A stretch of 64,000 bases of DNA, taken from an uncultured Acidobacteriaceae bacterium (GTDB taxonomy: Bacteria; Acidobacteriota; Terriglobia; Terriglobales; Acidobacteriaceae). The DNA is taken from positions 6,206,698 to 6,270,697 of the forward strand of contig OY969419.1 in assembly GCA_963699185.1 (NCBI GenBank). Reading direction: 5' to 3'. Below are positions 413-27,514 of this stretch, one piece after another (within the stretch, counting starts at the first letter, position 1; each line of letters begins with the position of its first letter). Position numbers and translations under genes: made by a program. The notes beneath the pieces are model-generated. The model did not search any database and was not told the origin of the DNA. It was given only the letters and a program-made list of their open reading frames with translations.

Positions 413-1450
413 ATGGCATGTACTAGCAAGATAAAGAGAATCTTCCTGGCGCCGCACCCAAGGTCCTTGGCGGAGATCTTCCACCCATCCGATCTCGAGC
501 ATTTGCGCACGCTGTGCGAGCTCGTAATTCACGAAAAACCGGACCTCATCGAACATGTCTTCCAAAAACTTGTTACGCCTGCCGACATAATCATCGGGCA
601 ATTCGATCTCCCTCAATCTCGCCTGGAACGAATTCCCCAATTGAAAGCGATCTTCAATGTCGAAGGGAATTTTCTACCGAACGTCGATTATCCATATTGT
701 TTCCGTCGCGGCATACGTGTCCTCACGATCAGCCCTGTCTTCGCCGAGCCGGTCGCAGAATTGGCACTCGCACTGGCGATCGACTTGGGGCGCGGAATAA
801 CTCGGTCAGATCATGACTTCAGAGCCGGCGTGGAGAAGTATGGCCTCGCCGCCAACCGCGAGGTCCAGAGCCTGTTCGACCAGCCCGTCGGCTTCCTGGG
901 TTTCGGTGATCTCGCAAGAGCTCTGCTGCCGCTGCTGATTCCGTTCCGCTGCCGCGTGCGTGTTTACGATCCCTGGCTGCCGGAGGAACTGATCGCCGAG
1001 GCGCGCTGCGAACCGTGTTCCCTGGATGATGTCCTACGACAGAGCCGCGTTATCTTTATGCTCGCAAGTGCTACGGCGGAGAACAAGGCATTTGTCGGAG
1101 CACCGCAGTTTGCACGAATGCAGCCGGGAACTGTATTCGTACTGGTAAGTCGTGCAGCCGTTGTGGACTTCGATGCCATGATCCAGGCTGCCCAAAGCGG
1201 TCATATCCGCGCCGCGACCGACGTTTTCCCGGATGAGCCCTTGCCTGCTGATCATGCTGCCCGTCGCACCACAGGAATCTTGTTATCCGCTCACAAAGCA
1301 GGGGCACTGGAGCAAGCCCTGAAGAGAATCGGAACAATCGTGGTTGCGGACGTTGAAATGATTTCGCGAGGACTGCCACCAGTCATGTCCAAAGTTGCAC
1401 AGCCTGAGACGGTAGCACTCTTTCGAGGCAAGCCGGTCGCCAAGAGCTAA
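413..1450 (+). CDS. D-isomer-specific 2-hydroxyacid dehydrogenase family protein (NAD-binding)
   Basis: 345-aa ORF. It has the nucleotide-binding motif 'GFLGFGDLARAL' and family-typical catalytic contexts 'SRAAVVD', 'DVFPDEP' and 'SAHKAG'. Confidence 0.75.
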   Translation: MACTSKIKRIFLAPHPRSLAEIFHPSDLEHLRTLCELVIHEKPDLIEHVFQKLVTPADIIIGQFDLPQSRLERIPQLKAIFNVEGNFLPNVDYPYCFRRGIRVLTISPVFAEPVAELALALAIDLGRGITRSDHDFRAGVEKYGLAANREVQSLFDQPVGFLGFGDLARALLPLLIPFRCRVRVYDPWLPEELIAEARCEPCSLDDVLRQSRVIFMLASATAENKAFVGAPQFARMQPGTVFVLVSRAAVVDFDAMIQAAQSGHIRAATDVFPDEPLPADHAARRTTGILLSAHKAGALEQALKRIGTIVVADVEMISRGLPPVMSKVAQPETVALFRGKPVAKS

Positions 1451-1702
1451 AGTCTCATGACATCCGTCACTGCAGAGAACTGCCACTTCGCTGGCGGCGA
1501 TTCCGCTCCGTCCAACAGTGGCTCGACACCAGCCTATTCGGTGGCAGTGGTCAGCGCCGCCAACACATTCCCGGCCGAGCTTTGTCATCGATATGCACGT
1601 CCGCTAGACTGATGGATTACACACTCACGGGTTCAGCGGCTGCGCAATCGAGGTCGTTCTGACCGTACCCGGAAACAAATCAGGCTGAGATAGGAGAAGC
1701 GT

Positions 1703-3940
1703 TTGACGGATCAGACCGCCAGAAAGTGGATCGCCAAACAGATCGGACGGTTCCGCACTCTTCGGCGAGCTTTCAGCAGGGGCAACGAAGAAGCGAAATA
1801 TAAGGTCATCCTTGGGATCGTATCGAGACTCCCGGTTGCGGACGCAACCACGCAAAGGGTTCTTGCCTGGTGCCTGAGTCACTTCTTGAACCGGCAACGG
1901 GACACGCTGAAATCGCAGCTCAAGCGCGCTCAGTCTGCGTGGGACGCCAAGGGACATAAGCGGTTGAAAGAGCTGCTTGCTGGGAATGAGACCCTGGAGA
2001 TTCCCGCCTGCAGCTCGCCAACGCTGACGTTCATCATCGTGGCAAAGAACAAAGCTCACCTTACCCTTCTTACCATCGAATCCGTACTGCAGTTCGCCGA
2101 CGTGCCCTACGAGCTTGTAATCGTCGACAACGGGTCGACCGACTCGGTCCCGACAATGCTCGACAGGATTCCCCAAGCAAAGGTCATTCGCAATCAAACC
2201 AACGTTGGGTTCGGACCGGCGTGCGTTCAGGCTGCCGAGATCGCCACGGGAGAATACTTGTGCTTCCTGAACAACGATGCCCTTCTGACAAGAGGTGCCG
2301 TCTCGGCCGCGCTGAAGAACTTCGATCGCGGGTCTGTGGGTGCAGTTGGCGCGAAGATCCTGCTGGCCAACGGACGACTGCAGGAGGCCGGATCGATGAT
2401 TTGGTCTGACGGGAGCGCCTTGGGATATGGACGCGGAGACGATCCTGATCTGCCTCAATATAACTTCCGGCGACCAGTTGATTTCTGCTCGGCGGTATTC
2501 CTGATAACTCCCAACGAAGTATTTCACCGGATGGGTGGTTTCAGCGAACGGTTTGCCCCCGCCTATTACGAAGACACCGACTATTGCATGGTCCTCTGGC
2601 AGAACGGCTTGAGAGTTATCTACGAGCCGCTCGCCCAGATTATGCATTATGAATCTGCCAGCTCGGGAGGAAATGATCTAGCTGCGCCGATGATGGCGGC
2701 GCACCAGGTCAAGTTCAAGGACAAATGGGGACCTGTGCTTGAGCGGCACTACTCTCCGAGTCCTGCGAATATCTGCAGCGCACGGACATCTGTTCATTCA
2801 CCCTCCCTGCGAATCCTCTACATCGACGATCGGATTCCGAAACGGACGTTGGGCTCTGGCTTCCCTCGAAGCAACGACGTCGTGACCGAGCTCGCACGTA
2901 TGGGTCATCATGCCGTTTGCTCGACGGCCACATTTCCGCTCATCGGCGATGGTTATGGGGATTTGCCCCGAGAGCTGGAGCTCTTCGACGGCTTCCGCTT
3001 TCGCCAGAGGTTGGTCGATGAATACATGCCCTGTGCCGACATTGTGTGGGTGAGTAGACCTCATAACCTTAAGCTGCTGCTGAATGAATATCCCTCGGTG
3101 TTCACCTCCCGTAAATTTGCTCTTGTCTATGATGCCGAAGCCATTTTCTCGCAGAGGGTAAGTGGCCGGGCGGCACTCTTTGGAGAGCCGACTGTTCCGA
3201 CCCATAGCCTCGAGCCGTCCGGCCTGGAAGAAGAGGTTTCCTTGGCGAAGATAGCAGACGCCGTCGTGGTCGTCTCAGAGGCCGATCGAAAGGTAATGCA
3301 GGATGCCGGTGTGCGATCGGCGCACATCGTGAGTTTCAGCATATCGGTTACTCCGACCGCCTCGCCGTTTCTGAAACGAGATGTGTTCCTCTTTGTCGGT
3401 TCAGTGCACGGCTCAGACAATCCGAACGCCGACTCAATCCGCGAGTTCTGCCGCGCCCACTGGGCCAAAGTTCATCGCGCAACCGGAGCTCATCTCGTAG
3501 TAGCAGGCTATGGAACGGAGCTGCTGCGAGACGAAATCGCCGACGACACGGTTCAGATACTGGGCATGCAGGAAGACTTGCGTCCGCTGTACGACCGCGC
3601 GCGGATATTTGTCGTCCCTACGCGGTACGCCGCGGGCCTGCCGTTCAAAGCCTACGAGGCGGCAGGTTATGGAGTGCCAATGGTCGTCTCTCCCCTGATC
3701 GCCCGGCAAATGCAATGGAGGGACGGAGCCGAGTACTTGGCCGCCAGTGATCCGGACCAGATGGCAGAGAATTGTGTCCGGCTTTATGGGGACGAGAAGT
3801 TGTGGGAGTGTCTTCGGGCCAATAGCCTGGCGCGGTTGGAGGCGGAACTGGGTCCCGCAGCTTTCGGCGCTAATCTCCGTTCGATTCTGAACGAAGTCAC
3901 CGCAGTCTCGGCTGCGACCGAACCGAAGACGGACATTTGA
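1703..3940 (+). CDS. Two-domain glycosyltransferase (N-terminal GT2, C-terminal GT1/GT4-like)
   Basis: 745-aa ORF with a TTG start. GT2 signatures are 'TFIIVAKN...VIVDNGSTD', 'FLNNDAL' and 'YYEDTDYC'. The C-terminal 'VVAGYG...IFVVPTRYAAGLPFKAYEAAGYGVPMV' resembles the GT4 EX7E region. Confidence 0.8.
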   Translation: MTDQTARKWIAKQIGRFRTLRRAFSRGNEEAKYKVILGIVSRLPVADATTQRVLAWCLSHFLNRQRDTLKSQLKRAQSAWDAKGHKRLKELLAGNETLEIPACSSPTLTFIIVAKNKAHLTLLTIESVLQFADVPYELVIVDNGSTDSVPTMLDRIPQAKVIRNQTNVGFGPACVQAAEIATGEYLCFLNNDALLTRGAVSAALKNFDRGSVGAVGAKILLANGRLQEAGSMIWSDGSALGYGRGDDPDLPQYNFRRPVDFCSAVFLITPNEVFHRMGGFSERFAPAYYEDTDYCMVLWQNGLRVIYEPLAQIMHYESASSGGNDLAAPMMAAHQVKFKDKWGPVLERHYSPSPANICSARTSVHSPSLRILYIDDRIPKRTLGSGFPRSNDVVTELARMGHHAVCSTATFPLIGDGYGDLPRELELFDGFRFRQRLVDEYMPCADIVWVSRPHNLKLLLNEYPSVFTSRKFALVYDAEAIFSQRVSGRAALFGEPTVPTHSLEPSGLEEEVSLAKIADAVVVVSEADRKVMQDAGVRSAHIVSFSISVTPTASPFLKRDVFLFVGSVHGSDNPNADSIREFCRAHWAKVHRATGAHLVVAGYGTELLRDEIADDTVQILGMQEDLRPLYDRARIFVVPTRYAAGLPFKAYEAAGYGVPMVVSPLIARQMQWRDGAEYLAASDPDQMAENCVRLYGDEKLWECLRANSLARLEAELGPAAFGANLRSILNEVTAVSAATEPKTDI

Positions 3941-4082
3941 CCAGTGCTGAATCGCAAGGCTTTTAATCACATGAGAATTTCCATCGAGTTCCGCCACAAC
4001 ACCAGGCGTCATTTCGACTGAGGATCTCGAAGCGGCGCGGTATCGTCGAGGATGTCGAGCGCGTGGTATAAGGTTGAACAGC

Positions 4083-5066
4083 ATGATTATCACTCGTTCA
4101 CCTCTACGCGTGTCGTTGGGTGGTGGAGGCACTGACTTACCCTCTTATTCGCGGCATCACGGCGGATTCCTGATTGCCGGTGCGATCGACAAGTATGTAT
4201 ACATAACCATCCATCCACGATTTGTGGATAGCTTCTTGCTGAAGTACTCGCAACTCGAGGAAGTGTCAGCGATCGAGGAGATTCGGCATCCGATTATCAG
4301 GGAGGCGCTACGGTTAGTGGGGGTCGAGGTCCGGAACCTAGAGATTTCCAGCATGGCGGACATCCCGGCGGGCACGGGCCTTGGTTCGTCGGGAAGCTTT
4401 ACAACTGCTCTTCTAAAAGCGCTGTATGCCCACAAAAAGCACTTGGTGCATCCTCATGAGCTGGCAGCTCAAGCGTGCCATCTCGAGATTGATGTTCTGG
4501 GCGAGCCGATCGGCAAGCAGGACCAATACATCGCGGCTTACGGTGGAATAACTTGTTTTGAGTATGGGACGGATGACTCCGTGCGGGCTTGGCCACTGGC
4601 TATTTCGGAAGAAACCCTCTTCAATTTAGAAGATAACCTACTTCTATTTTTTACCGGTTACTCGCGCTCCGCCTCAGCCATACTAAAGGAACAGGATGAT
4701 AAGAGTAGAATGTCGGATTCTGGGGTGCTAGAGAACCTTCATTTCACTAAGGATTTGGGGATGCGCAGCAAACTGGCCCTGGAGGCCGGGGATCTCGCAG
4801 AATTTGGCAGCCTTATGAATGTTCACTGGGAGTGGAAAAAACACCGGGGTGCAGGTATCAGCAATGGCAAGATCGACGAGTGGTATGCCTGCGCAATGTC
4901 GAATGGCGCGGTGGGAGGCAAGGTCATCGGCGCCGGTGGTGGAGGATTTCTAATGTTCTACGCAGGCGACAAGGCCAGACTGCGCCATGCCATGCGAGAA
5001 CAGGGCTTGAAGGAAGTTAGATTTCGTTTCGACTTTGAAGGTACTCGTGTCATCTCTTCCGACTGA
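4083..5066 (+). CDS. hddA: GHMP-family sugar kinase, D-glycero-alpha-D-manno-heptose 7-phosphate kinase-like
   Basis: N-terminus 'MIITRSPLRVSLGGGGTDLPSY' and GHMP motif 'PAGTGLGSSGS'. It sits in an operon with gmhA, gmhB and hddC. ATG at 4083 was preferred over TTG at 4074. Confidence 0.8.
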   Translation: MIITRSPLRVSLGGGGTDLPSYSRHHGGFLIAGAIDKYVYITIHPRFVDSFLLKYSQLEEVSAIEEIRHPIIREALRLVGVEVRNLEISSMADIPAGTGLGSSGSFTTALLKALYAHKKHLVHPHELAAQACHLEIDVLGEPIGKQDQYIAAYGGITCFEYGTDDSVRAWPLAISEETLFNLEDNLLLFFTGYSRSASAILKEQDDKSRMSDSGVLENLHFTKDLGMRSKLALEAGDLAEFGSLMNVHWEWKKHRGAGISNGKIDEWYACAMSNGAVGGKVIGAGGGGFLMFYAGDKARLRHAMREQGLKEVRFRFDFEGTRVISSD

Positions 5067-5088
5067 CTTAACTTCTGCTTCAGAGCTC

Positions 5089-5799
5089 ATGCCGGCAGTT
5101 ATTCTCGCGGGCGGACTTGCCACCCGTTTGCGGCCTCTTACGGAAACCATACCTAAGGCACTGATCGAGATAAACGGTCAGCCTTTCCTGTCGCACCAGC
5201 TGGAACTTCTCAAACGCAACCGCATTCTGAAAGTTGTGGTCCTTGTGGGCTATCTTGGAGAGAAGATCCAGGAGCGCTTCGGCGATGGATCGGACCTGGG
5301 AATCAAGATTGAATACTCCTTTGATGGCCCGGCTCTGCTGGGCACCGCAGGCGCAATCCGGCAAGCTCTGCCGTTGCTTCCAGAGCGCTTCTTCGTTCTT
5401 TACGGCGATTCCTACCTGGCATGCGACTATCGCGCAGTCGGAACCGCGTTCGTCCGGAGTGGCATGACTGGACTGATGACGGTTTATCGCAACGAAGGCC
5501 GTTACGACGTTAGCAACGTAGCTTACGATGGAGCGCAGATCGTACGCTACGATAAGGTGCATCGCACGCCGGCGATGCACCATATTGACTACGGTCTAGG
5601 CGCGTTCCGTCGAAGCGTATTCGCCACGATTCCTGACCGCGAAAAGTGGGATCTCGCCGCTGTTTACCAGGACCTGCTTCACGCTGGGAAGCTGGCAGCC
5701 TATGAGGTCCACGAGCGCTTCTACGAAATCGGTTCTTCTGAGGGGTTGCGTGAAACATCCGAGTACCTCACTACTCAACGCCAATTCGGTACAGACTGA
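5089..5799 (+). CDS. hddC: Sugar-1-phosphate nucleotidyltransferase, D-glycero-alpha-D-manno-heptose 1-phosphate guanylyltransferase-like
   Basis: 'MPAVILAGGLATRLRPLTETIPKALIEINGQPFL' is the canonical NTP-transferase N-terminus. ATG at 5089 is internal to the listed ORF 5035..5799. Confidence 0.8.
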   Translation: MPAVILAGGLATRLRPLTETIPKALIEINGQPFLSHQLELLKRNRILKVVVLVGYLGEKIQERFGDGSDLGIKIEYSFDGPALLGTAGAIRQALPLLPERFFVLYGDSYLACDYRAVGTAFVRSGMTGLMTVYRNEGRYDVSNVAYDGAQIVRYDKVHRTPAMHHIDYGLGAFRRSVFATIPDREKWDLAAVYQDLLHAGKLAAYEVHERFYEIGSSEGLRETSEYLTTQRQFGTD

Positions 5800-5884
5800 G
5801 TTAGACCTGAGACGTTCCCCTGCGCTAATGCCGGCAAGTCGAGCAACCTTCTGATTGTGTTATTCTGGCGAATTGACTACCCCC

Positions 5885-6514
5885 ATGTCGAAAGCACCCG
5901 ATATTTCAATGAGCTTTTCGGCCTTCTTTCTTGCTGAGGTGGAAGAGGTTGCGCGCCAACTGGATGCTGCTACCATCGAACGAATAGCGCTACTGTTGTC
6001 GCAAGTGCGCGAGCGCGGTGGACGCCTGTTCATCCTGGGTGTGGGCGGCAGTGCGGGGAATGCGTCGCACGCGGTCAACGATTTCCGCAAGCTGACAGGG
6101 ATTGAGGCGTATGCACCCACAGACAACGTGTCCGAGCTGACGGCGCGCACGAATGACGAAGGCTGGCCGACGGTGTTTGAAGCGTGGCTGCGAGTGAGTC
6201 GGCTGCAATCGCGCGATGCGATTCTGGTGTTCTCGGTGGGCGGAGGCAGCGTCGAGCGCAATGTCAGCCCGAACATCGTCGCGGCGCTGGATTACGCGAA
6301 GTCGGTAGGCGCGAGCGTGGTGGGAATTGTCGGGCGGGACGGTGGTTACACAGCGCGCGTCGCGGATGCTTGTGTCATCATTCCGACGGTGCATGCTGAC
6401 CGGGTTACGCCTCATTCGGAAGCATTTCAGGCGATTGTGTGGCACTTGCTGGTGTCACATCCGGCGCTCCAGCAGAAAGCTACCAAATGGGAATCGATAA
6501 CGCCAACGCGTTGA
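5885..6514 (+). CDS. gmhA: SIS-domain sedoheptulose 7-phosphate isomerase
   Basis: SIS motif 'LFILGVGGSAGNASHAVNDFRK', plus heptose-operon context. Confidence 0.8.
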   Translation: MSKAPDISMSFSAFFLAEVEEVARQLDAATIERIALLLSQVRERGGRLFILGVGGSAGNASHAVNDFRKLTGIEAYAPTDNVSELTARTNDEGWPTVFEAWLRVSRLQSRDAILVFSVGGGSVERNVSPNIVAALDYAKSVGASVVGIVGRDGGYTARVADACVIIPTVHADRVTPHSEAFQAIVWHLLVSHPALQQKATKWESITPTR

Positions 6515-7065
6515 GGCGCGCGGTGTTCCTGGATCGCGACGGCGTATTGAATGAGCCCGTGGTGCAGGAGGGCAAGCCCTATCCTCCTGCAGATGCCGCG
6601 TCTCTGCGGGTCTATCCGGGCACGGCAGAAGCCCTGAATCGGCTGAAAGCCCGCGGCTACTTGTTGGTGGTGGTCACTAATCAGCCCGATGTCGTCCGAG
6701 GCACTCAGAAGCGCGATACGATTGAAGAGATCAACCGCCGCTTGTCTACGGAGTTGCCGCTGGACGACGTGCTGACCTGCTACCATGATGATGCGGACGA
6801 TTGTGACTGCCGGAAGCCGCGTCCAGGACTGATAAGGCGCGCGGCGCGGCAGCATGGGATCGATCTGAACCTTAGTTATATGATCGGCGACCGCTGGCGG
6901 GATATTGATGCCGGCGCGAACGCCGGCTGCAAAACCATCCTGATTGACCGGGGATATGCGGAGCGAGCGCCAGCGTCTGCTCCCGCCGCGCGCGTCGGGT
7001 CGCTGTCTGACGCGGTCGATTGGATCCTGAAGACACCACGGAGATCGCTTGAGAAGTGTCGCTGA
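6487..7065 (+). CDS. gmhB: HAD-family D,D-heptose 1,7-bisphosphate phosphatase
   Basis: HAD motif I 'AVFLDRDGVLN', 'VVVTNQPDV', the Cys cluster 'CYHDDADDCDCRKPRPG' and 'MIGDRWRDIDAG'. The start was chosen at ATG 6487 and overlaps the gmhA end. Confidence 0.8.
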   Translation: MGIDNANALRRAVFLDRDGVLNEPVVQEGKPYPPADAASLRVYPGTAEALNRLKARGYLLVVVTNQPDVVRGTQKRDTIEEINRRLSTELPLDDVLTCYHDDADDCDCRKPRPGLIRRAARQHGIDLNLSYMIGDRWRDIDAGANAGCKTILIDRGYAERAPASAPAARVGSLSDAVDWILKTPRRSLEKCR

Positions 7066-7765
7066 ACTGAAGATCAAGTTGTTCGCCGATGGCGCCGACA
7101 AGGCGCAGATTGTGCAGGCACAAGCCAACCCACTGATTAGCGGGTTTACCACCAACCCCACCCTGATGCGCGCCGCCGGCGTGAAGGACTACGAGGCATT
7201 TGCGCATGAGATCCTCGAGGTCGTTACCGACCGTCCCATCTCATTCGAGGTGTTCGCCGACGAGTTTGATGAGATGGAGCGGCAGGCGCACGAGATTGCG
7301 GGCTGGGCGGAGAATGTTTACGTCAAGATTCCGGTGACCAACACCAGGCGCGAGTCGTCGATGGAGCTGATTCGCCGTCTGGCACACTCCGGTGTCAAGA
7401 TCAATGTCACCGCCATTCTGACACTGGACCAGGTTCGCGACGCCGCTGCAGCGCTGGCGGGTGGCGCACCGTCGGTGATTTCAGTGTTTGCCGGAAGGAT
7501 CGCGGACACGGGGCAAGACCCAGTTCCTGTTATGGCGTCGGCGGTAGAAATTGTGTTACGCCACCCCGGTATCGAATTGCTTTGGGCCAGCCCGCGTGAG
7601 TTGCTGAACATCTTTCAGGCGAATGACGTCGGGTGCCACATCATTACGGCGACCGACAGTGTGCTCGGCAAGCTGAAGACCGTCGGGAAGGATCTCGACG
7701 ACTACTCGCTCGAAACGGTGCGGATGTTTTACAACGACGCGGCCCATTCGGGATACCAACTCTAG
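7049..7765 (+). CDS. Transaldolase / fructose-6-phosphate aldolase family protein (short type)
   Basis: 'KLFADGAD...ISGFTTNPTLM' and 'VYVKIPVT' (Schiff-base Lys context). TTG start with GGAG 5 nt upstream. Confidence 0.75.
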   Translation: MRSVAELKIKLFADGADKAQIVQAQANPLISGFTTNPTLMRAAGVKDYEAFAHEILEVVTDRPISFEVFADEFDEMERQAHEIAGWAENVYVKIPVTNTRRESSMELIRRLAHSGVKINVTAILTLDQVRDAAAALAGGAPSVISVFAGRIADTGQDPVPVMASAVEIVLRHPGIELLWASPRELLNIFQANDVGCHIITATDSVLGKLKTVGKDLDDYSLETVRMFYNDAAHSGYQL

Positions 7766-7777
7766 GCAGGTTGAATC

Positions 7778-9025
7778 GTGGGGAGTTCCTACATGGTCGG
7801 TAGTCCTACTTCGACTCGCGAGGCGGAAGGCGGAGATGTGGAGCTGCTGGTTCCCGCCAACGACGTGGCTGATCCCGAACTCTCTATCGTGATTCCAGCG
7901 CTCAACGAGGAGCTCACGATCGCGCAGTTTGTGGATTGGTGCATGGAGGGTCTGCAGCGTGCCAACGTCAGAGGAGAGGTGCTGATTATCGACAGCTCTA
8001 CTGATGCCACAGCCGAGATCGCGGTGGCGAAGGGCGCGCGCGTGCTGAAGGTCCCCAAACGGGGACTGGGGCGTGCTTACATCGATGCCATTCCATTTAT
8101 TCGCGGCGAGTACGTCCTGATGGGCGACGCCGATTGTACCTACGACTTCCGCGAGCTGAAGCAGTTCATGACGAGCTTCCATGATGGCCACGAATATGTG
8201 ATGGGATCGCGCTTTCGCGGCTACATTGAGCCCGGGTCCATGCCTCCGCTCCACCAATACTTTGGCACGCCGATCACTACCTGGCTGCTGAACTTTCTTT
8301 ATGGCAGCGACTTCTCCGACATTCATTGCGGCATGCGCGGCATCTCTCGAAGTGCATTGCATCGCATGGACCTGCAATCGCAATCGTGGGAGTACGCATC
8401 GGAGATGGTTTTGAAGTCGGTACGCATGGAATTGCCGACTGCCGAAGTTCCTGTGGGCTTTCTGAAGGACCAGGAAGGGCGCTTCAGCCATCACAAGCGG
8501 TCTGGTTGGTTCTCGCCGTGGCATGCCGCCTGGATCAATCTCCGGGCGATGTTCGTTTATGGCGCCGATTTCTTTCTGTTCCGCCCGGGCCTGCTACTGC
8601 TATTCATCGGCCTGTTATTAACGCTGCCGATGACGTTCGGGCCAGTGACCGTCGGTCCCATTACCTTCTCGCTCTACTGGATGCTACTCGGGCTGTCATT
8701 GTCGGTGCTGGGGCTCCATGGCTTCTATGTGGGCGCGCTGGCACGAGTCTTTTTCGATTACAGCGGTAATACGACGCGGCGCTGGCTGAGCACGTTCTCA
8801 TATACGCGGTCCGTCGTATTGAGTGCGCTGGCTGTCGTTGCGGGTGGCGCGCTGGCAATGCCCCTGGTCCTGCAGTATCTGCGTTCTGGGTTGCGACTGC
8901 CTGGGGATGTCGTGTCGGCCAGTCATATGGCGGTAACTGGTCTCCTGTTTGCGATGGCCGGGGCTATGAACTTTACCTTTACACTGGCGCTCCATGCCGC
9001 GGTCGCGAATGTCAAACGAAGATAG
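7778..9025 (+). CDS. GT2 glycosyltransferase with C-terminal transmembrane domain (polyprenyl-phosphate sugar synthase-like, ArnC/GtrB/DPM1 type)
   Basis: 'LSIVIPALNEELTI', 'IIDSSTDAT' and 'GDADCTYD', followed by about four hydrophobic helices in the last ~150 aa. Confidence 0.75.
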   Translation: MGSSYMVGSPTSTREAEGGDVELLVPANDVADPELSIVIPALNEELTIAQFVDWCMEGLQRANVRGEVLIIDSSTDATAEIAVAKGARVLKVPKRGLGRAYIDAIPFIRGEYVLMGDADCTYDFRELKQFMTSFHDGHEYVMGSRFRGYIEPGSMPPLHQYFGTPITTWLLNFLYGSDFSDIHCGMRGISRSALHRMDLQSQSWEYASEMVLKSVRMELPTAEVPVGFLKDQEGRFSHHKRSGWFSPWHAAWINLRAMFVYGADFFLFRPGLLLLFIGLLLTLPMTFGPVTVGPITFSLYWMLLGLSLSVLGLHGFYVGALARVFFDYSGNTTRRWLSTFSYTRSVVLSALAVVAGGALAMPLVLQYLRSGLRLPGDVVSASHMAVTGLLFAMAGAMNFTFTLALHAAVANVKRR

Positions 9026-10651: not shown

Positions 10652-10724
10652 TCACAATGCGATCCGTTCTTCAGTCTGGCCGGCCCGAGACGGGTTGGTT
10701 CGTTCCCGGTAAGGGGCGAATCGG

Positions 10725-15960: not shown

Positions 15961-16008
15961 TTCAGCACACTTGGTATTTTCGGTCCCACTGACTATCTGC
16001 AAGCGGCC

Positions 16009-20409: not shown

Positions 20410-21425
20410 CGGCGGAAAGCGTGCCTCAGCGACCGAAGCGGCTCTGTTAGTTTCCACGACCGGGAGTTTAAGACAGATGCCAGGGTCTGTTTGATCGTTT
20501 GCAATTCTTCTTCCTTCTGAGCTAGCGAGAGTCTCAAGCGCAACTCCTCGTCAGACGCCACGGGCTTGGGGGCAGGAAGGCTTGGTGCGCTACCCTCCGA
20601 GGTGGCCTTGCAGTCCGCAACCGATGACGCCGCGCGGCGCCAGCTCTCAACTGTCTGCTCCCGGTCTGTGCACAGTCTTAGAACAGTGACAAACTCCAGT
20701 TGTCCAGGCTCAGTATCGTAGAGTGCCTCGCAAGCAAAGTGGATCAGTCCCCCCGCCGCAGCCTCCGCGAACAGCTCCGCAAACGAACGCGGCGTGAACA
20801 CCCAGCAGTGGACATCGTGGTAGTTACCGTTTGCGATCTGATCTCTCGAAACCCCCATTCCGCCTTGAAGATCGTGTCCCGGAACCCGAGGTAACTCAGC
20901 AGGCAACTTGCCTGCCCAGGCTGCTTGCAGGTCAACCTGCCTCATTGAGATAAAAAAGTCCAGGATCGCGATTGGAATGGGTGTACGAGCCTTCAGCACA
21001 TACGCATTAACTACGTCGCAGAGCCGGCTCTCGCGGCGCAGGTAGTCGAAGGTAAACCGGCGGTCCGGTACTACTAGCCTCAAGCTTCCCCCAGGCCTGA
21101 GAACCGCTTCAATCTCTTCCAGCCACGTAATCACGTCGGGTACATGTTCAATTACGTGCGAGGCGATGACATAATCAGCTTTCTCGCCCTTCAGGCATAC
21201 CTCAAGCGTCTGCTTTCCCCATACAGCATCCACCTCGACAATTTCATCGGTATTTACCGCTGGATCGTCGGCATATTTCTTGCGAAGATACTCGCTATCT
21301 GCATGATCGACGTAGATTATCTTCCCTTCCGACTTGGCGACCGCAGGCCTGCACAGAGGGCCGATCTCTAAGCCGGTGCTGGTAGTAAGATCCAATCCTG
21401 ACAGCAGCTTTTCTCGACGATCCAT
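20406..21425 (-). CDS. Class I SAM-dependent methyltransferase with C-terminal coiled-coil tail
   Basis: 'ADYVIASHVIEHVPD...LRPGGSLRLVVPD'. The C-terminus is 'LRLRLSLAQKEEELQTIKQTLASVLNSRSWKLTEPLRSL'. Its stop overlaps the stop of the convergent 16801..20409 gene (TTAA). Confidence 0.7.
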   Translation of the reverse strand: MDRREKLLSGLDLTTSTGLEIGPLCRPAVAKSEGKIIYVDHADSEYLRKKYADDPAVNTDEIVEVDAVWGKQTLEVCLKGEKADYVIASHVIEHVPDVITWLEEIEAVLRPGGSLRLVVPDRRFTFDYLRRESRLCDVVNAYVLKARTPIPIAILDFFISMRQVDLQAAWAGKLPAELPRVPGHDLQGGMGVSRDQIANGNYHDVHCWVFTPRSFAELFAEAAAGGLIHFACEALYDTEPGQLEFVTVLRLCTDREQTVESWRRAASSVADCKATSEGSAPSLPAPKPVASDEELRLRLSLAQKEEELQTIKQTLASVLNSRSWKLTEPLRSLRHAFRR

Positions 21426-21684
21426 GTTAGGTCACCTGTTCGCCAACGCGATGTTATCTTGCCTTATTTTCACGCACATATACTCTTGCCTGGCTATGGA
21501 ACTTGGTCGGACAAATTTGATATGCACGAGTTAGCGTGGCATTTAAAGCCGGTTTTACGGTATATGTTTGCAGAATGTTTGCAGGCTGGTTTTCTTCTCA
21601 AGAGCGGTAAAAGCACCTATGACCCCCGGTTAACAGTTGATATGGGACTCGAAGACCATGTGCAACCATAGTAGTGGGTATTCC

Positions 21685-22578
21685 CTAGTTTGGTTTTCTG
21701 CAAAGAATCAAATCTTGACGGTTCGCAATCCCCTTCTTGATAACTTTCTCAATTTCAAAGACCTTGCTCCAATGCCTGTGAATATAATCTTCCGTATGGA
21801 ATGACGTTTGATAAAACTCCGGCAACCCTTCCGTTTTGTTGCCTACTGAGTAATAAAAGCCATTTTCTCGAAGCTGCTCCTTGTTTTCTTCCGAGGAATC
21901 CTGCAATAATTCCTCACTATGTGTGGTTAGAAGCAGATAACCGCCTCGTCTAGTTACGCGTCGAAGCTCTTCAAGCCATGCAAGTTCCATGTCTTCAGGC
22001 AAATGCGTAAATATCGATATGGAATAGACAAATTCAAACATATCGTCAGCAAATGGTAAGGGTGGCGAATCTTTGTTTGCGATAAAAGCCCCTATTTGCG
22101 ACAAGTGATGTTGGCACCATACTATTGCTTCTTCATCTATGTCCGTTCCATATAATCTAGTTTGCGCATATAATTTACGGAAATATCTAATAATACGACC
22201 ACAACCACATCCAAAGTCCAACACACGATGTTGCTCACCTAATTCAATTATTGAGTTGATTGAAGAATAAATATTAAACGATACCATTCTTCCAATGATC
22301 TCGAAGGCTGTAAGATCGACATTGCCATGAACTCTTTGTCGTAGATGGTCGGGAGGGATATACTCCGGAGGAACTGATCTCAGGAAATCCTCCATAGGCC
22401 CTTTAAGCGCGTTATAAAGCTCAGGTGCGACACCAGGGCGATGTTCACGGAAGCCATGATAAATGTAATGCTCCAAACCGCAGGAAATAGAGCCGCCTTT
22501 AATAGCTTCCAATACATCGGGATTCAATTGTAAATATGTTACTTCATCAAAACTCTGAAAGGGGTGTTTCATTATCAT
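21685..22578 (-). CDS. Class I SAM-dependent methyltransferase
   Basis: Motif I 'RVLDFGCGCGRIIRYF' and 'VYSISIFTHLPED...RRGGYLLLTTH'. The ATG at 22578 was chosen to avoid overlap with the upstream gene. The DNA is visibly AT-richer than its surroundings. Confidence 0.7.
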   Translation of the reverse strand: MIMKHPFQSFDEVTYLQLNPDVLEAIKGGSISCGLEHYIYHGFREHRPGVAPELYNALKGPMEDFLRSVPPEYIPPDHLRQRVHGNVDLTAFEIIGRMVSFNIYSSINSIIELGEQHRVLDFGCGCGRIIRYFRKLYAQTRLYGTDIDEEAIVWCQHHLSQIGAFIANKDSPPLPFADDMFEFVYSISIFTHLPEDMELAWLEELRRVTRRGGYLLLTTHSEELLQDSSEENKEQLRENGFYYSVGNKTEGLPEFYQTSFHTEDYIHRHWSKVFEIEKVIKKGIANRQDLILCRKPN

Positions 22579-22615
22579 AGGATCACTTAGTTGAACTTCA
22601 AAAAGGAAATGTGGG

Positions 22616-24706
22616 TTAAAGATCTCTAGATAGCTGAGAGAGCATTCCGGGAGATGAGAGTGATGAATATCCAATATAGAGTCCCGAGCCAATAAATACG
22701 ATCAAAAATGGCGATGCTGGTGAACAGTAATGTAGAAAATACGTAGAGAACGAGGTCGCATCAATATAAGCCAACAGCATAATTCTGCTGATTACCGCCG
22801 TCAGGCTTCCGATGGCCAAAGCAAGCAACGCGAGAGACGGTCTGTGCCGCCGGAATCTCACAATCGCGACTAGCACCCCTATCGCCGCTAGAACAGTAAG
22901 ACCGCGAGAAGTTTTGGCATATACCTTGCCAATCAGCGATCCAATCCGCTGTTGTTTCGCCCGTCGACGTTCACCAAACGAACTGGAGGCGTCATCGGCG
23001 GAGGCGTGCTCAATATACAGAATCAACTCCGGCGTGTTAATAGGAGCTCCGCTTACGAGTTTTCCGAATGGAATCAGAACCTGTCCGGCACGTGACTCGA
23101 TGGCCAGGTCGCATTCCAGAACGGGACAATCCGATTCAATCGTGAATCGCACGGACTTCAGATCAGGGAGCACTGCGGCCACGTCGGGGGCCGGTGAAGT
23201 AGTAATGGATTGCTTTAGCTCTCGCTTCGTGTAAGTAACAATCTTCAACGTGGGCACCTCGAAACGGCCGGCCACCCACCCGCTCGCTCTTCCCAGCGGA
23301 AAGTCCTGTACGGTTCCTCCCAGGGGCGGTGACAGATTCTCGTCGGTGATGTCCGCGAAAGTCGCGAGCCCCTGAGGTGATCCGATACTGGGTACGGCAC
23401 CTACCTCTCCCTTTCCCATGTCGAAGACCATGCTGGCCAGCCCCTTGGCACTGTCCAAGGCTTCACGCGCGTATTCCCAGTGGAAGGGAGGCATAAAGGT
23501 TTCCCGCAGTGGCTGGCACCGAATCTTGCCCAAGTCGCACGCACTATTGATCTCAGTCGCAATCCTTGAGTAAAATGCCTCTGATTCTTTCGCTGAACGA
23601 TAGTGCCCCGCTCCGGAAGCGGCGTCGCGCATTGCCCACATGAACCAGGATTGCTGGTCGCAAGGCGGGGGGATGGGGTGCGTAGAACATCCTAAGGCAG
23701 CCCAGCCATGTGCTTGTCCGTCCTCAAGTGAACTCGAAAGCTCTCTCGCTGCGGCACTCACTTCGTATGCCTTCTGCCTCGCGTCAAGCGGAATGGGAAC
23801 GAATCGCCGGAAATGACTCCTCTCAATACGCGCCAGTGCACCGTATGCCTTTACAAAGCCGCCGGAGCGAAACTCATTAGTACGAAAAACGCCGTAATAA
23901 TGCCAGTTGAGAACAGCTATTGACCCGACGGCAAGAAGACAGACTACGCCTCCCACCAGTAAAGGCAGTACGATTGGCCGCCACTCCTTCCACAATGCGT
24001 TGTTCTCTACGGAAGTGGTAAATCGGGTTTTCCGCTCGACGAAAACCTTAGCTGCCCCAAATGCGATAAGTATCATGCACGCAGGAAGGAGCCATACACT
24101 TTCTTCCCGGGTTAGCCAAAAAGCCCCCCAGACTAGCCCGAAGCCCAGCCCTAGCAATGCGTTGCGTTGCAACTTACGAAGCTCGGGAAAGCTGATGAGT
24201 ACAACTAGCCCAAACAGGCATAACGAAAGGGCGGTGTACAAGCTCTCTCGGGAGACGCGGGCAAGCCACGGATGCCAGAGAACAGGATTCAATGCCAACC
24301 CAACAAACGTCAGCAATCCTACCCAGCGGCGGCGTGCGGCGCGGGCCGTCACGAATGCCGTAATACCCGATGCCGCTAAATAGATCAGTTGCTCGGCAAT
24401 CTTTAAGGGGATCGAGGCGACAAACGCCACGGCGATGAAAAGCGGATAGAACATTCCCTTGCTGAGGGTCATCTTGTCATAGGGTCCTAACCACTGACCG
24501 GCCAGCAGGTAATTGGCCGTGCGCAGAAAGAACTGGTCATCGTGGACCGCAACGGAGGCAGCAACCAGGGGTATCCCCGCCCGTATCCACAAACTGACAA
24601 GGCAGACGATCGCTGCCACCAAGATCGTTGTCTTGTACGAGATATCGCGTACCGGGGCAACTGCCTGCCGCTCGACTGCCGTTGTGTATTCCGTTCGAAA
24701 CGTCAT
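22616..24706 (-). CDS. Large polytopic membrane protein with a ~330-aa extracytoplasmic domain, possible GT-C-like glycosyltransferase
   Basis: The ATG at 24706 has GGAG 6 nt upstream. The N-terminal half has ~9 hydrophobic helices and an acidic first loop 'VAVHDDQFF'. A soluble domain follows, then two C-terminal helices. No recognised catalytic motif was found. Confidence 0.4.
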   Translation of the reverse strand: MTFRTEYTTAVERQAVAPVRDISYKTTILVAAIVCLVSLWIRAGIPLVAASVAVHDDQFFLRTANYLLAGQWLGPYDKMTLSKGMFYPLFIAVAFVASIPLKIAEQLIYLAASGITAFVTARAARRRWVGLLTFVGLALNPVLWHPWLARVSRESLYTALSLCLFGLVVLISFPELRKLQRNALLGLGFGLVWGAFWLTREESVWLLPACMILIAFGAAKVFVERKTRFTTSVENNALWKEWRPIVLPLLVGGVVCLLAVGSIAVLNWHYYGVFRTNEFRSGGFVKAYGALARIERSHFRRFVPIPLDARQKAYEVSAAARELSSSLEDGQAHGWAALGCSTHPIPPPCDQQSWFMWAMRDAASGAGHYRSAKESEAFYSRIATEINSACDLGKIRCQPLRETFMPPFHWEYAREALDSAKGLASMVFDMGKGEVGAVPSIGSPQGLATFADITDENLSPPLGGTVQDFPLGRASGWVAGRFEVPTLKIVTYTKRELKQSITTSPAPDVAAVLPDLKSVRFTIESDCPVLECDLAIESRAGQVLIPFGKLVSGAPINTPELILYIEHASADDASSSFGERRRAKQQRIGSLIGKVYAKTSRGLTVLAAIGVLVAIVRFRRHRPSLALLALAIGSLTAVISRIMLLAYIDATSFSTYFLHYCSPASPFLIVFIGSGLYIGYSSLSSPGMLSQLSRDL

Positions 24707-25086
24707 CTTAGACTCCGGCGCCGAAGTAGCCGCCAACGACACCCTTTCCTCTCGTCCAAAATCATATATGATTTTGGACGGACGCAGTGGGTCGGTCAGA
24801 TCCATTGCTAGGTGCCCGGAGAGAGTCCTAGTGCAGCTCGAGCACCCGAACGGTCCGTCTTTCTCGATCGCAGCTCGACGTCCATGAGAAGGGCTTAAGC
24901 GACGGCAGTCTTTTTCCCGCATCGAGATATTGCTGCAAGTTCGCGCGTCTCAGAATGGCAGTATCCGCCATTCAAACCGCAGTCCCCGCTATTCTGCCTC
25001 TTCGAGCTTGGATTTGTTACCATTAAGATGTTCAGGTTTACGCGCGGGTTCATGCCAGCAATTAGCTCGGTTCGTCCGCCCTGGAG

Positions 25087-25872
25087 TTGCACGACTTGAG
25101 AGAACTTGTTGTTGAAACGTACCGCTATCGCGAGTTGATATGGGCCCTTGCCCTCAAGGAACTGAAGATTCGCTACAAGCGGTCGGTGCTGGGGTTCATG
25201 TGGGCCTTGCTGAACCCGGCCCTGATGATGCTGGTGATGAGCGTGGTGTTCTCCACCATCATGCGCTTTAACATACCGAACTATGCTATTTTCCTGCTTA
25301 GCGTGCTGTTGCCGTGGACTTTTTTTTCGCAGTCCTTAAGTTACGCGACGGAATCGATTGTTAGCAACGGCGAACTGATTAAGAAAGTTTCGGTACCCAA
25401 GTTGGTGTTCCCGGTTGCCGCCGTGGTTTCAAACATCATCAATCTGCTGTTGTCCTTCCTACCTCTGGCGCTTCTCGTCGTAGGAATGCGACATCCGTTT
25501 TACAAGACCTGGCTGTTCCTTCCGGTTCCGATGCTGGCGCTCGTCATCTTTACGCTGGGGGTAACGTTCTTCTGCGCCGCCGCCAACGTGTATTACCGCG
25601 ACGTGGCCCATATTGTGCAGGTAGTCCTGGCAGCATGGTTTTATTTCACTCCGATTATCTACTCGCTTGACTTAATCCCGCCTGATCGGCGGTGGCTCTT
25701 CAAGCTGAATCCCATTATTTATGTGATCAATGGATTCCGCCTCGCGGTTTACAACGGCATTCTGCCCAGGTGGCAGTCGGTTGCTGCCTCGTTTGCCTGC
25801 GCATTCCTTGCGTTGTTTATCGGTTTCGCGATTTTCCGCAAATACCAGGACGAGTTTGTGTTCTATGTCTGA
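25087..25872 (+). CDS. wzm: ABC-2 type polysaccharide exporter permease
   Basis: 'YRYRELIWALALKELKIRYKRSVLGFMWALLNP' is the typical Wzm/TagG N-terminus. Six hydrophobic helices follow. Confidence 0.9.
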   Translation: MHDLRELVVETYRYRELIWALALKELKIRYKRSVLGFMWALLNPALMMLVMSVVFSTIMRFNIPNYAIFLLSVLLPWTFFSQSLSYATESIVSNGELIKKVSVPKLVFPVAAVVSNIINLLLSFLPLALLVVGMRHPFYKTWLFLPVPMLALVIFTLGVTFFCAAANVYYRDVAHIVQVVLAAWFYFTPIIYSLDLIPPDRRWLFKLNPIIYVINGFRLAVYNGILPRWQSVAASFACAFLALFIGFAIFRKYQDEFVFYV

Positions 25873-26659
25873 GCCTCAGCTCATCGACAACTCAGTGGTC
25901 GTCAGAGTTGAAAACGTCACGCAGCGGTTCCGTGTCACACACGAACGTCCTGATTCACTGCGCGAGCTTTTTTCCACGTTTCTTCGCCATACCGTGAGTT
26001 ACCACGTTCTCGATGCCGTCAAGGACGTATCGCTCGAAGTGCCCCGAGGCCAAATGTTGGGATTGATCGGTCGTAACGGCTCGGGCAAGAGTACGTTGTT
26101 GAAAATCATCGCCGGCGTTTACAAACCCACGGCCGGGCGGGTCAGCGTACAGGGAAAAATCGCGCCGCTGATCGAGTTGGGTGCCGGGTTCCATCACGAA
26201 CTGACAGGACGCGAAAATATCCTGCTGAACGGACTGCTTATGGGTTATTCCAAGGAGGAGATGCGTGAGCGGGAACAGAGCATCATTGATTTCGCTGAAA
26301 TTGGCGATTTCATCGACGCTCCCATCAAACAGTATTCCTCAGGCATGCACACTCGGCTGGCGTTTGCAGTTGCCACCGAAGTAGATCCCCAGGTCCTTAT
26401 TTTGGACGAAATCCTTGCCGTGGGCGATGACGCGTTTCAGCAGAAGTGCTTCGCGCGCATTCAGAACTTCCGACAGGCCGGGAAGACGATCCTTTTCGTG
26501 TCGCATGCCATGCAGTCCGTCATTCGCTTTTGTGATCGTTCGATCCTGCTGGAAAATGGATCGATTGTGGCGGATGGCGATCCCACCGAGGTAGCCGCGG
26601 TCTATCACAACCTGTTGTCCACCCCCCTTCACCCTCTGGTCCACGCTGGCGCCGAATAG
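25865..26659 (+). CDS. wzt: ABC polysaccharide exporter ATP-binding protein, short form without a C-terminal carbohydrate-binding module
   Basis: Walker A 'GRNGSGKST', signature 'YSSGMHTRL', Walker B 'LILDEILAVGD' and H-loop 'FVSHAM'. The ATG at 25865 overlaps the wzm stop (ATGTCTGA). The protein ends ~45 aa after the H-loop. Confidence 0.9.
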   Translation: MSEPQLIDNSVVVRVENVTQRFRVTHERPDSLRELFSTFLRHTVSYHVLDAVKDVSLEVPRGQMLGLIGRNGSGKSTLLKIIAGVYKPTAGRVSVQGKIAPLIELGAGFHHELTGRENILLNGLLMGYSKEEMREREQSIIDFAEIGDFIDAPIKQYSSGMHTRLAFAVATEVDPQVLILDEILAVGDDAFQQKCFARIQNFRQAGKTILFVSHAMQSVIRFCDRSILLENGSIVADGDPTEVAAVYHNLLSTPLHPLVHAGAE

Positions 26660-26791
26660 TGGGCAATAATTTACTTGACACACTGACGTTACGGCGACAA
26701 TCTCAGTCGGACTCTCACCTATGTGCGGGGCGCAGGCAAGTGTGCGACCTGGCTAGCGGGTTAGGGTTAGCTACAACTAGCGGGGGAAGTC

Positions 26792-27514
26792 ATGGCGAGC
26801 GGCTTCACGGCGCACAACATCAGGCTTGACGACGGATCTTTCACCAAGCCGGAGCAGCCCTGGCAGATGGAAGATCTCGTGCTGCTTAAGTTCACCAGGC
26901 AATTCCTGCGGATACTGTTTCCGGATGGCGTCGCCGGCAAACGGATTGTTGATCTTGGGTGCCTCGAGGGTGGCTATACCGTCGAACTGGCGCGTGCTGG
27001 TTTCGATGCGCTGGGCATCGAGGTTCGGCAGAATAATTTTGAGAATTGTCAGCGAGTCAAAGCGGGGACCAATCTGCCCAACCTGACTTTCGCATGTGAT
27101 GATGTCCACAACTTGGCGAAGTACGGTGTCTTCGATGTGGTTTTCTGCTGCGGCCTCCTTTACCACTTGGATGAGCCGCGCAAATTCGTCGACCTGATGG
27201 CGCAAGTGTGCCGGCGGGTCGTCATTATCGATACCCACGTCGCGAATACCCAGCCCAACGATAAGTTTGAGCTTTCCGAAATAACCGAGAATGAGGGTTG
27301 GGCTGGACGGTGGTTTTCCGAGTTCGACGACGACCATGCGCGGCATACGGACAAGTGGTCAGCCTGGAGCAATCGGAAATCATTCTGGCCGATGAAGCGA
27401 GACTTGATGCAAGGGTTGTTTCAAGCGGGGTTCACCATGGTTCTGGAATCCCCCACCTTCGAACCCTACCTCGAACTCACCCACAGAGTGACGATCGTCG
27501 CCTTGAAGGATTGA
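26792..27514 (+). CDS. Class I SAM-dependent methyltransferase (DUF1698/CmoB-like fold)
   Basis: 'KRIVDLGCLEGGYTVELARAGFDALGIE' and 'FDVVFCCGLLYHLDEP'. Confidence 0.7.
   Translation: MASGFTAHNIRLDDGSFTKPEQPWQMEDLVLLKFTRQFLRILFPDGVAGKRIVDLGCLEGGYTVELARAGFDALGIEVRQNNFENCQRVKAGTNLPNLTFACDDVHNLAKYGVFDVVFCCGLLYHLDEPRKFVDLMAQVCRRVVIIDTHVANTQPNDKFELSEITENEGWAGRWFSEFDDDHARHTDKWSAWSNRKSFWPMKRDLMQGLFQAGFTMVLESPTFEPYLELTHRVTIVALKD

Follow-up and report, generated by a model that had tools for sequence, protein, structure and literature searches.

The eight-carbon sugar of the lincosamides is built through a GDP-octose pathway by five enzymes: the transaldolase LmbR, the SIS isomerase LmbN, the GHMP kinase LmbP, the HAD phosphatase LmbK and the guanylyltransferase LmbO, with ribose-5-phosphate as the acceptor for the transaldolase in the characterised system (PMC4351081, PMC12945683). 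Among the celesticetin (Ccb) proteins, the nearest non-lincosamide homologues come from Solibacter usitatus for CcbK (49% identity), Acidobacterium capsulatum for CcbO (38%), an uncultured acidobacterium for CcbZ (40%) and Sorangium for CcbN and CcbP (39% and 37%, respectively; PMC4351081 supplement). Here we describe a locus at positions 413–27514 of a 64,000-nucleotide stretch of contig OY969419.1 from an uncultured soil bacterium of the Acidobacteriaceae (assembly GCA_963699185.1), the whole stretch being referred to herein as the window. An earlier reading of the same DNA from sequence alone had described an ATP-binding cassette (ABC)-transporter-dependent glycan locus built around GDP-D-glycero-α-D-manno-heptose. 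We find that the genes at 4074–7765 are one copy of a widespread, horizontally spread and uncharacterised five-gene sugar-nucleotide cassette, and we infer that this cassette makes a nucleotide-activated higher-carbon (seven- or eight-carbon) sugar. Compared by enzyme class, it appears to match the lincomycin eight-carbon sugar route at least as well as it matches the textbook heptose route.

The core of the cassette consists of five consecutive genes on the + strand:

4074–5066, + strand: GHMP sugar-phosphate anomeric kinase, HddA/LmbP-like (Pfam GHMP_kinases_N and GHMP_kinases_C)
5035–5799 (likely true start ~5089), + strand: sugar-1-phosphate nucleotidyltransferase, HddC/LmbO-like (Pfam NTP_transferase)
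5855–6514 (likely true start 5909), + strand: SIS-domain ketose/aldose-phosphate isomerase (SIS_2), of a family distinct from GmhA
6439–7065 (likely true start ~6487), + strand: HAD-IIIA sugar-bisphosphate phosphatase, GmhB/LmbK-like (TIGR01656 and TIGR01662 above cut-off)
7049–7765, + strand: cassette transaldolase (TIGR02134, 330.4 bits versus a cut-off of 282)

A listing of open reading frames (ORFs) together with family scans recovered every gene that the sequence-only reading had mapped, at the same coordinates, and confirmed that the kinase, nucleotidyltransferase, gmhA-type and gmhB-type genes are consecutive with overlapping ends; the SIS ORF runs into the HAD ORF, which in turn shares 17 nt with that of the transaldolase. 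The family scans also confirmed the transaldolase, the short-chain dehydrogenase/reductase (SDR), five glycosyltransferase (GT) domains and wzm/wzt. The description of the region as an ABC-transporter-dependent glycan locus with a HddA-HddC-GmhA-GmhB-type enzyme set therefore held; its assignment to GDP-heptose did not fare as well, as none of the four enzymes reaches a curated heptose cut-off.

Scores and cut-offs are given in bits for the curated NCBIfam/TIGR family models. The kinase is of the GHMP type, a superfamily that LmbP would share, and is present in a single copy in the genome. Its best NCBIfam match is HddA (NF049969), at 155.6 versus a cut-off of 600, and its closest solved structures (3K85, WcbL 4USK/4USM and 4N3O, the last being Campylobacter jejuni HddA; 128–166 bits) are heptose-phosphate kinases. 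An HldE-type β-kinase, which the sequence-only reading had named as a finding that would count against its pathway, was ruled out: the true HldE is encoded elsewhere in the genome. The nucleotidyltransferase reaches 93.5 on HddC (NF049965; cut-off 300) and scores higher on MurU (113), an archaeal GlmU-type model (97.8) and a mannose-1-phosphate guanylyltransferase (94.8), the HddC, MurU and guanylyltransferase scores being sub-cut-off; its nucleotide specificity cannot be read from family scores. The phosphatase passes two HAD-IIIA models (TIGR01656 at 130 and TIGR01662 at 94.6) and falls below the GmhB equivalogs (118 versus 178 for the beta form, 90 versus 150, and 69 versus 250 for the alpha-specific form), with ~72 bits against GmhB in the PDB. 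The isomerase scores 55.8 on gmhA (TIGR00441; cut-off 209), and its closest solved structures are phosphoheptose isomerases, all solved GmhAs scoring ≤50 bits. Among the core enzymes only the transaldolase passes its model, TIGR02134. All core cassette enzymes are single-copy in the genome, and in the PDB set no Lmb/Ccb sugar enzyme was found among the matches to any of seven queries.

The isomerase had been named GmhA in the sequence-only reading, an identity that was not borne out. In addition to its low score, the protein shares 29% identity with the GmhA encoded in the same genome. Aligned to Burkholderia pseudomallei GmhA, it has a His-x3-Asp motif in place of His-x3-Glu, and its STSG phosphate-binding loop contains 6 inserted residues (SVGGGSVERNVS). 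The replaced Glu is a metal/catalytic residue of GmhA, and judged by these alignments the cassette isomerase belongs to a separate family. Consistent with this separation, gmhA scores across 21 acidobacterial genomes are bimodal, at 37–58 bits for the cassette SIS proteins and 103–200 bits for canonical gmhA, and the two types co-occur in 16 of the 21 cassette-bearing Acidobacteria. In one locus (L017, genome G288) both even stand in a single gene string: a canonical-type gmhA (15698–16282; 193 bits) lies directly upstream of, and is co-directional with, a cassette string of epimerase, UDP-glucose dehydrogenase (UGDH)-like, SDR, Gfo, kinase, nucleotidyltransferase, SIS, HAD and transaldolase genes. 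A search of 1.84 billion cluster representatives placed the isomerase family in 453 clusters at 50% identity (E<1e-30), with motifs that include HAVNDFRK and TDNVSELTARxNDEGW. Many of these clusters are fusions with a nucleotidyltransferase or a phosphatase, and ten look actinobacterial, none of them being Lmb proteins.

The genome also encodes heptose enzymes of its own. A canonical-type gmhA (175–192 bits), a bifunctional hldE and an adjoining GT9 heptosyltransferase-like gene lie together at C1:212126–215608. This hldE scores 530.6 bits on NF008454, above the cut-off, and both RfaE domain models are above cut-off as well. The organism probably makes its core heptose independently of the cassette, which is clearly a second system, different from the canonical heptose route of this genome. 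Two long housekeeping transaldolases are found at 1.85 and 3.74 Mb, and the cassette enzyme is the third transaldolase in the genome; a housekeeping role for it was ruled out on account of the other two.

The sequence-only reading had seen the transaldolase as a supplier of sedoheptulose-7-phosphate on demand. Its distribution does not bear this out: the transaldolase is a near-obligate member of the five-gene cassette and not an optional supplier. Conservation of the locus among acidobacterial genomes was surveyed in 301 Acidobacteriota, and 22 of these genomes have the window-type isomerase. Bar one fragmentary assembly, a transaldolase of the window type (>250 bits) is confined to those same genomes in this survey, and 20 of the 22 fetched loci encode a transaldolase on the same contig ≤15 kb from the SIS gene. 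Of the two remaining loci, one is on a contig that ends just past the SIS gene and the other has its transaldolase on another contig. In five loci the neighbour is an FSA/TalC-type transaldolase (best match TIGR00875), which, judged by family match, is a non-orthologous replacement.

A wider scan of 185,579 species genomes, using family motifs from a 13-sequence SIS alignment, found the isomerase family in at least 589 species representatives, of which the best 80 were taken as loci. These 80 are 65–89% identical to the query and come from Acidobacteriota, Verrucomicrobiota, Planctomycetota, Methylomirabilales, Elusimicrobia, Nitrospirales, Myxococcota, Legionella, Bradyrhizobium, Beijerinckiaceae, Burkholderiales, Chlorobium, Leptospiraceae, Chloroflexota and Eremiobacterota. 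Among the 75 that had enough flank, 69 (~92%), from more than ten phyla, have a transaldolase ≤10 kb from the SIS gene. All five genes are present in 49 of those 69, usually in the order kinase-nucleotidyltransferase-SIS-HAD-transaldolase, and four of the six loci that lack a nearby transaldolase have a TIGR02134-class gene elsewhere in the genome. In locus L035 (10001–11350; protein P0172, 449 residues) an N-terminal TIGR02134-class transaldolase is fused to a cassette-type SIS isomerase, within a cluster that also holds an epimerase, a nucleotidyltransferase, a GHMP kinase, an adh_short protein, a Gfo/Idh/MocA protein, a HAD protein and a Bac_transf initiating transferase. With linkage in 69 of 75 loci, a different subfamily in its place in five and one fusion, the transaldolase counts as an integral part of the cassette. 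The five ORFs in the window are intact, 57–89% identical to their counterparts across phyla and conserved in order, and the transaldolase is 82–95% identical to its closest counterparts in more than 100 soil-metagenome clusters. Cultured carriers are represented by plasmid 3 of Lawsonia intracellularis PHE/MN1-00 (L116) and two Rhizobium megaplasmids, one of them R. jaguaris pRCCGE525c (L117); isomerase identity is 65% in L116 and L117. The Lawsonia record has the full cassette under generic RefSeq names (SIS domain-containing protein, HAD-IIIA family hydrolase, transaldolase, galactokinase), and both Rhizobium records are without gene annotation at the isomerase site.

The genes that accompany the core differ from locus to locus. 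The window holds what we term variant B, in which the core is joined by an SDR of the 326-residue type, a membrane-anchored GT2 and a methyltransferase; this combination recurs with the core in L005–L007, L037, L038, L040, L089 (Chlorobium), L106 and L114 (Polyangiaceae). Orthologues of the SDR (55–83% identity) accompany the cassette in variant-B loci, and the locus order is kept in Korobacteraceae-like contigs. In 29 of the 80 loci, two or more of three further tailoring genes (for a Gfo/Idh/MocA oxidoreductase, a UDPG_MGDP_dh-family protein and an adh_short reductase) sit upstream of a 60–79% identical core, in most cases with an epimerase gene. Extra tailoring genes are present in L008, L035, L017 and Lawsonia too, the UDPG_MGDP_dh-family gene being missing from L008 and L035. 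At the level of families only, the epimerase corresponds to LmbM, the UDPG_MGDP_dh-family protein to LmbL and the Gfo oxidoreductase to LmbZ. Since L036, whose isomerase is 89% identical to that of the window, has Gfo, adh_short and epimerase genes in place of the variant-B set, tailoring modules are exchanged among near relatives, a pattern known from serotype loci. The cassette-linked UGDH-family proteins carry the motif (A/S/G)GGTLARD, with the catalytic Cys replaced by Thr, in 16 of 16 cases (L086 3611–4903 and 15 further loci, L041–L108); ordinary UGDHs in L044 and L098 have GGSCFPKD, with the Cys kept. As the catalytic Cys is replaced, the cassette-linked proteins cannot be acid-forming dehydrogenases. 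LmbL and LmbZ perform a 6,8-dehydration, which needs a C8 chain.

We favour a nucleoside diphosphate (NDP)-octose as the product of the cassette, and put the chance that this is correct at about even. It is favoured because the only characterised pathway of this composition makes an octose, because the organism has a GmhA and two other transaldolases regardless of the cassette, and because the isomerase is a separate family. Also in its favour are the acidobacterial and Sorangium origin of the nearest Ccb homologues, given that Bryobacterales/Solibacter, Acidobacteriaceae and Polyangiaceae carry the cassette, and the genes of the LmbM, LmbL and LmbZ families beside the core in relatives. Moreover, a transaldolase that is kept, replaced and fused in this way gives the pattern expected if it makes a substrate otherwise missing from the cell. 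In the route we propose, the transaldolase would move a dihydroxyacetone unit from fructose-6-phosphate or sedoheptulose-7-phosphate to ribose-5-phosphate, giving octulose-8-phosphate, which the SIS enzyme would convert to octose-8-phosphate. The kinase would then form the 1,8-bisphosphate, the phosphatase would take off the 8-phosphate and the nucleotidyltransferase would yield the NDP-octose, probably as the GDP form. This sugar nucleotide may be tailored by the SDR (9671–10651) and methyltransferases. The membrane-anchored GT2 (7778–9025), a candidate polyprenyl-phosphate sugar synthase, probably loads the sugar on polyprenyl phosphate, from which a polytopic membrane protein would transfer it on the outer (periplasmic) face of the inner membrane. 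The acceptor would be a heavily methylated glycan made by cytoplasmic GTs and exported by Wzm/Wzt. Gene content, family assignments, cassette conservation, transaldolase linkage and the separation from the heptose genes of the same genome are directly observed. The use of a C5 rather than a C4 acceptor by the transaldolase and the identity of the nucleotide are drawn from analogy with the Lmb enzymes, and the variant-B gene set suggests the tailoring and lipid-carrier route.

Several points weigh against an octose. The likeness to the Lmb/Ccb enzymes is one of enzyme class, any orthology being putative. LmbR/CcbR (222 residues, closest to a Cellulomonas transaldolase) is probably of a non-TIGR02134 subfamily, and the best non-lincosamide match of CcbN shares only 39% identity with it. 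For the kinase, isomerase and phosphatase, it is heptose enzymes that score highest among named families and solved structures, and sedoheptulose-7-phosphate is the normal transaldolase product. The window itself is without LmbL/LmbZ-like genes, and our literature search found no straight-chain octose in a bacterial polysaccharide. The lipid-carrier route is based only on gene adjacency and hydropathy.

An alternative is the GDP-heptose model of the sequence-only reading. Here, the transaldolase would raise the supply of sedoheptulose-7-phosphate from fructose-6-phosphate and erythrose-4-phosphate, sparing the pentose-phosphate pool from a high-flux polysaccharide pathway. The textbook transaldolase reaction does yield this ketose; HddA is the best NCBIfam match of the kinase and heptose-7-phosphate kinases are its closest structures; no protein of known function other than phosphoheptose isomerases is detectably related to the isomerase, and JGI labels members of its family sedoheptulose-7-phosphate isomerase; and the phosphatase is closest to GmhB. 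Heptoses are also common in surface glycans, where straight-chain octoses are unreported in the literature we searched. However, the four enzymes lie far under the heptose cut-offs (155/600, 93/300, 56/209 and 69/250), RefSeq gives the cassette genes only generic names, and a canonical gmhA and two further transaldolases are encoded elsewhere in the genome. The gmhA that stands beside a full cassette in L017 would likewise be redundant. Sedoheptulose-7-phosphate is a universal metabolite, so an enzyme that supplies it should often be lost, yet the transaldolase is kept in ~92% of loci, swapped for another subfamily where lost and once fused to the isomerase. In the literature search no transaldolase turned up in any GDP-heptose cluster, characterised or published, and no paper linked one with hddA/hddC. 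A heptose product is less well supported than an octose, and we regard it as less likely than not.

A different nucleotide sugar, neither glycero-manno-heptose nor a lincosamide-type gluco-octose, would arise if the C3 donor unit were passed to another aldose phosphate (such as arabinose-5-phosphate, to form a different octulose, or a hexose phosphate, to form a nonulose), or if the enzyme worked as an aldolase with free dihydroxyacetone. FSA-type enzymes have a broad acceptor range, and the cassette is served by two transaldolase subfamilies (TIGR02134 and FSA/TalC-type); the active-site and phosphate-loop residues of the isomerase are altered relative to GmhA, and tailoring sets differ between close relatives. 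We nonetheless consider such a product unlikely, with no positive evidence for any particular alternative acceptor and ribose-5-phosphate as the acceptor in the sole characterised system with this enzyme set. That the genes are adjacent by chance, or decaying, so that the sugar is no longer made, is very improbable. An IS110 element does lie within the locus (14503–15892), but it is situated between genes 6.7 kb downstream of the cassette, and its role as a disruption of the cassette was ruled out for that reason; the intact ORFs, their conserved order and identity across phyla, and the close soil-metagenome counterparts of the transaldolase argue against decay as well.

Extended beyond this genome, the NDP-octose reading would make straight-chain octoses, initiated by a transaldolase, a widespread and unrecognised building block of bacterial surface glycans in Acidobacteriota, Verrucomicrobiota, Planctomycetota, Myxococcota, Legionella-like bacteria, rhizobia, Chlorobium, Leptospiraceae and Lawsonia. 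On this view the lincomycin sugar pathway would have evolved from this route or be its sibling, and in the present locus the octose would be methylated and attached via a lipid-linked intermediate to a Wzm/Wzt-exported polymer. We advance this combined proposal tentatively, its chances being a little short of even. If the product is an octose, many annotations that name the cassette genes as a GDP-heptose pathway would be wrong, at least 589 of 185,579 species representatives carrying the isomerase family; a new class of monosaccharide would be added to bacterial surface glycans; and the origin of the lincosamide sugar pathway in Streptomyces would be explained. If it is a heptose, the cassette would still define a second route to heptose, dependent on a transaldolase and on an isomerase other than GmhA, that no curated model names.

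The remaining features of the locus are as follows:

413–1450, + strand: D-2-hydroxyacid dehydrogenase family gene (Pfam 2-Hacid_dh_C, 118.8 bits)
1703–3940, + strand: bifunctional glycosyltransferase, GT2 + GT4-type (Pfam Glycos_transf_2, residues 110–225; Glyco_trans_1_4, residues 560–697)
7778–9025, + strand: GT2 with C-terminal membrane helices (Pfam Glycos_transf_2; 3–4 C-terminal hydrophobic segments)
8994–9674, + strand: class I S-adenosylmethionine (SAM) methyltransferase (Pfam Methyltransf_11, Methyltransf_23), syntenic in variant-B loci
9671–10651, + strand: extended SDR of the NDP-sugar epimerase/dehydratase type (Pfam Epimerase, 155 bits)
10725–12242, + strand: 505-residue polytopic membrane protein, possible periplasmic glycosyltransferase (≥7 hydrophobic segments)
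12270–13016, + strand: class I SAM methyltransferase (Pfam Methyltransf_9, Methyltransf_23, Methyltransf_31)
13365–14240, + strand: 291-residue protein with faint sulfotransferase likeness (Sulfotransfer_1, Gal-3-O_sulfotr and Sulfotransfer_2, E 0.003–0.016, all below cut-off)
14503–15892, - strand: IS110-family insertion sequence, transposase ORF 14750–15805 (Pfam DEDD_Tnp_IS110, Transposase_20)
16801–20409, + strand: 1202-residue methyltransferase-spacer-GT2-GT2 protein (Pfam Methyltransf_24, residues 59–175; Glycos_transf_2, two stretches; Glyco_tranf_2_3, residues 886–1108)
20406–21425, - strand: class I SAM methyltransferase (Pfam Methyltransf_23, Methyltransf_12, Methyltransf_11)
21685–22692, - strand: class I SAM methyltransferase (Pfam Methyltransf_25, Methyltransf_11)
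22616–24922, - strand: 768-residue membrane protein with an N-terminal helix bundle, a ~330-residue soluble domain and two C-terminal helices (hydropathy; ≥7 hydrophobic segments)
25087–25872, + strand: Wzm, ABC-2 permease (Pfam ABC2_membrane, 65 bits)
25865–26659 (ORF 25730–26659, likely start ~25865), + strand: Wzt, ABC ATPase (Pfam ABC_tran, 86 bits, residues 97–228 of the 309-residue ORF)
26792–27514, + strand: class I SAM methyltransferase, last gene of the locus (Pfam Methyltransf_25, Methyltransf_11)

This gene content supports an ABC-transporter-dependent glycan locus. The five GT domains are distributed as GT2 + GT4 (1703–3940), GT2 (7778–9025) and two GT2 (16801–20409), and there are seven methyltransferase domains, encoded by six stand-alone genes and by the N-terminus of the 1202-residue protein. 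The latter is a candidate polymerase/terminator, with homologues of 1144–1166 residues in L006–L008. The GT2 + GT4 gene occupies the same position in L005/L006. The 2-hydroxyacid dehydrogenase gene at 413–1450 is missing from the syntenic Korobacteraceae-like contigs L005–L007, where Lon and SpoIIE genes precede the GT2 + GT4 gene; its place in the locus is doubtful, and it was ruled out as a conserved member. The SDR gave no NCBIfam equivalog at cut-off. The two membrane proteins that had been called GT-C-like are indeed polytopic, but their GT-C family is unconfirmed: the 505-residue protein has as its only match the LA_3751/LA_3752 putative-GT family (60.8 bits versus a cut-off of 200), with no Pfam match, and Pfam and NCBIfam searches gave no match for the 768-residue protein, a 58% identical homologue of which is found in L036. 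Wzt is short and lacks a C-terminal carbohydrate-binding extension. As had been noted from the sequence, the window holds no initiating transferase or ligase: in a search of the 6.57-Mb genome, all matches to Bac_transf (five genes), Glycos_transf_4 (one) and Wzy_C (three) lie elsewhere.

The IS110 element has three full-length copies elsewhere in the genome (94–98% identity), together with a diverged copy and fragments; its insertion site is flanked by the faintly sulfotransferase-like gene and a 165-residue ORF of no family. A block of lower G+C content (21400–24900; 0.50 versus ~0.57) holds the - strand methyltransferase and the 768-residue membrane protein, which suggests that this part of the locus is mosaic and laterally acquired. 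Directly after the locus, on the - strand at 27719–29855, are a gene for a DUF3106 protein, a 157-residue ORF and a gene for a sigma-70 factor of the extracytoplasmic function (ECF) type; further along the window, at 34873–36599, are an MbnB/TglH/ChrH-family (DUF692) gene and a DUF2063 gene.

In comparison with the lincosamide pathway of Streptomyces lincolnensis and S. caelestis, in which LmbM, LmbL, LmbZ and LmbS act after the first five enzymes, the five enzyme classes match the cassette one for one, a comparison made by class and not by sequence. Relatives of the cassette add epimerase, UGDH-family and Gfo/Idh/MocA proteins, the LmbM, LmbL and LmbZ families; in the window itself, family scans found no LmbM/LmbL/LmbZ-type set of tailoring enzymes. 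Whereas the Lmb genes belong to an antibiotic cluster, the cassette lies in a Wzm/Wzt polysaccharide locus of a Gram-negative bacterium, and where the lincosamide clusters have an aminotransferase, adenylation genes, a carrier-protein domain and thiol chemistry, this locus has none of these and is surrounded by glycosyltransferases, methyltransferases and Wzm/Wzt. The transaldolases seem to differ as well, that of the cassette being TIGR02134-class and LmbR/CcbR appearing to be of a ~220-residue type. Carriers of the cassette include metagenome-assembled genomes of Bryobacterales/Solibacter, Acidobacteriaceae and Polyangiaceae.

Downstream of the ketose phosphate, the GDP-heptose route uses the four enzyme classes found in the cassette; it also serves surface glycans, and has a GHMP-type kinase, to whose solved HddA/WcbL structures the cassette kinase is closest. 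The cassette differs in that four of its proteins score far below the curated cut-offs, in its separate isomerase family with an altered phosphate loop, and in its integral fifth member, a transaldolase of the kind that the literature search did not find in heptose pathways. Those pathways draw their substrate from the general pentose-phosphate pool and have no C–C bond-forming enzyme of their own, a feature that the linked, replaced and fused transaldolases of the cassette do not share. At the level of the whole locus, the closest described systems are the ABC-transporter-dependent assemblies with a capping or ruler protein of Escherichia coli O9a (WbdA/WbdD) and Klebsiella O12 (WbbB). Unlike in those systems, the locus has no initiating transferase or ligase, its Wzt is without the C-terminal carbohydrate-binding module, and its methyltransferase and polymerase domains are combined in one polypeptide. 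It likewise has Wzm/Wzt and a large protein composed of a methyltransferase, a long spacer and two GT2 domains. The element studied here is a real and intact cassette member in an ABC-transporter-dependent glycan locus, and a variant of the Hdd/Gmh and Lmb pathways.

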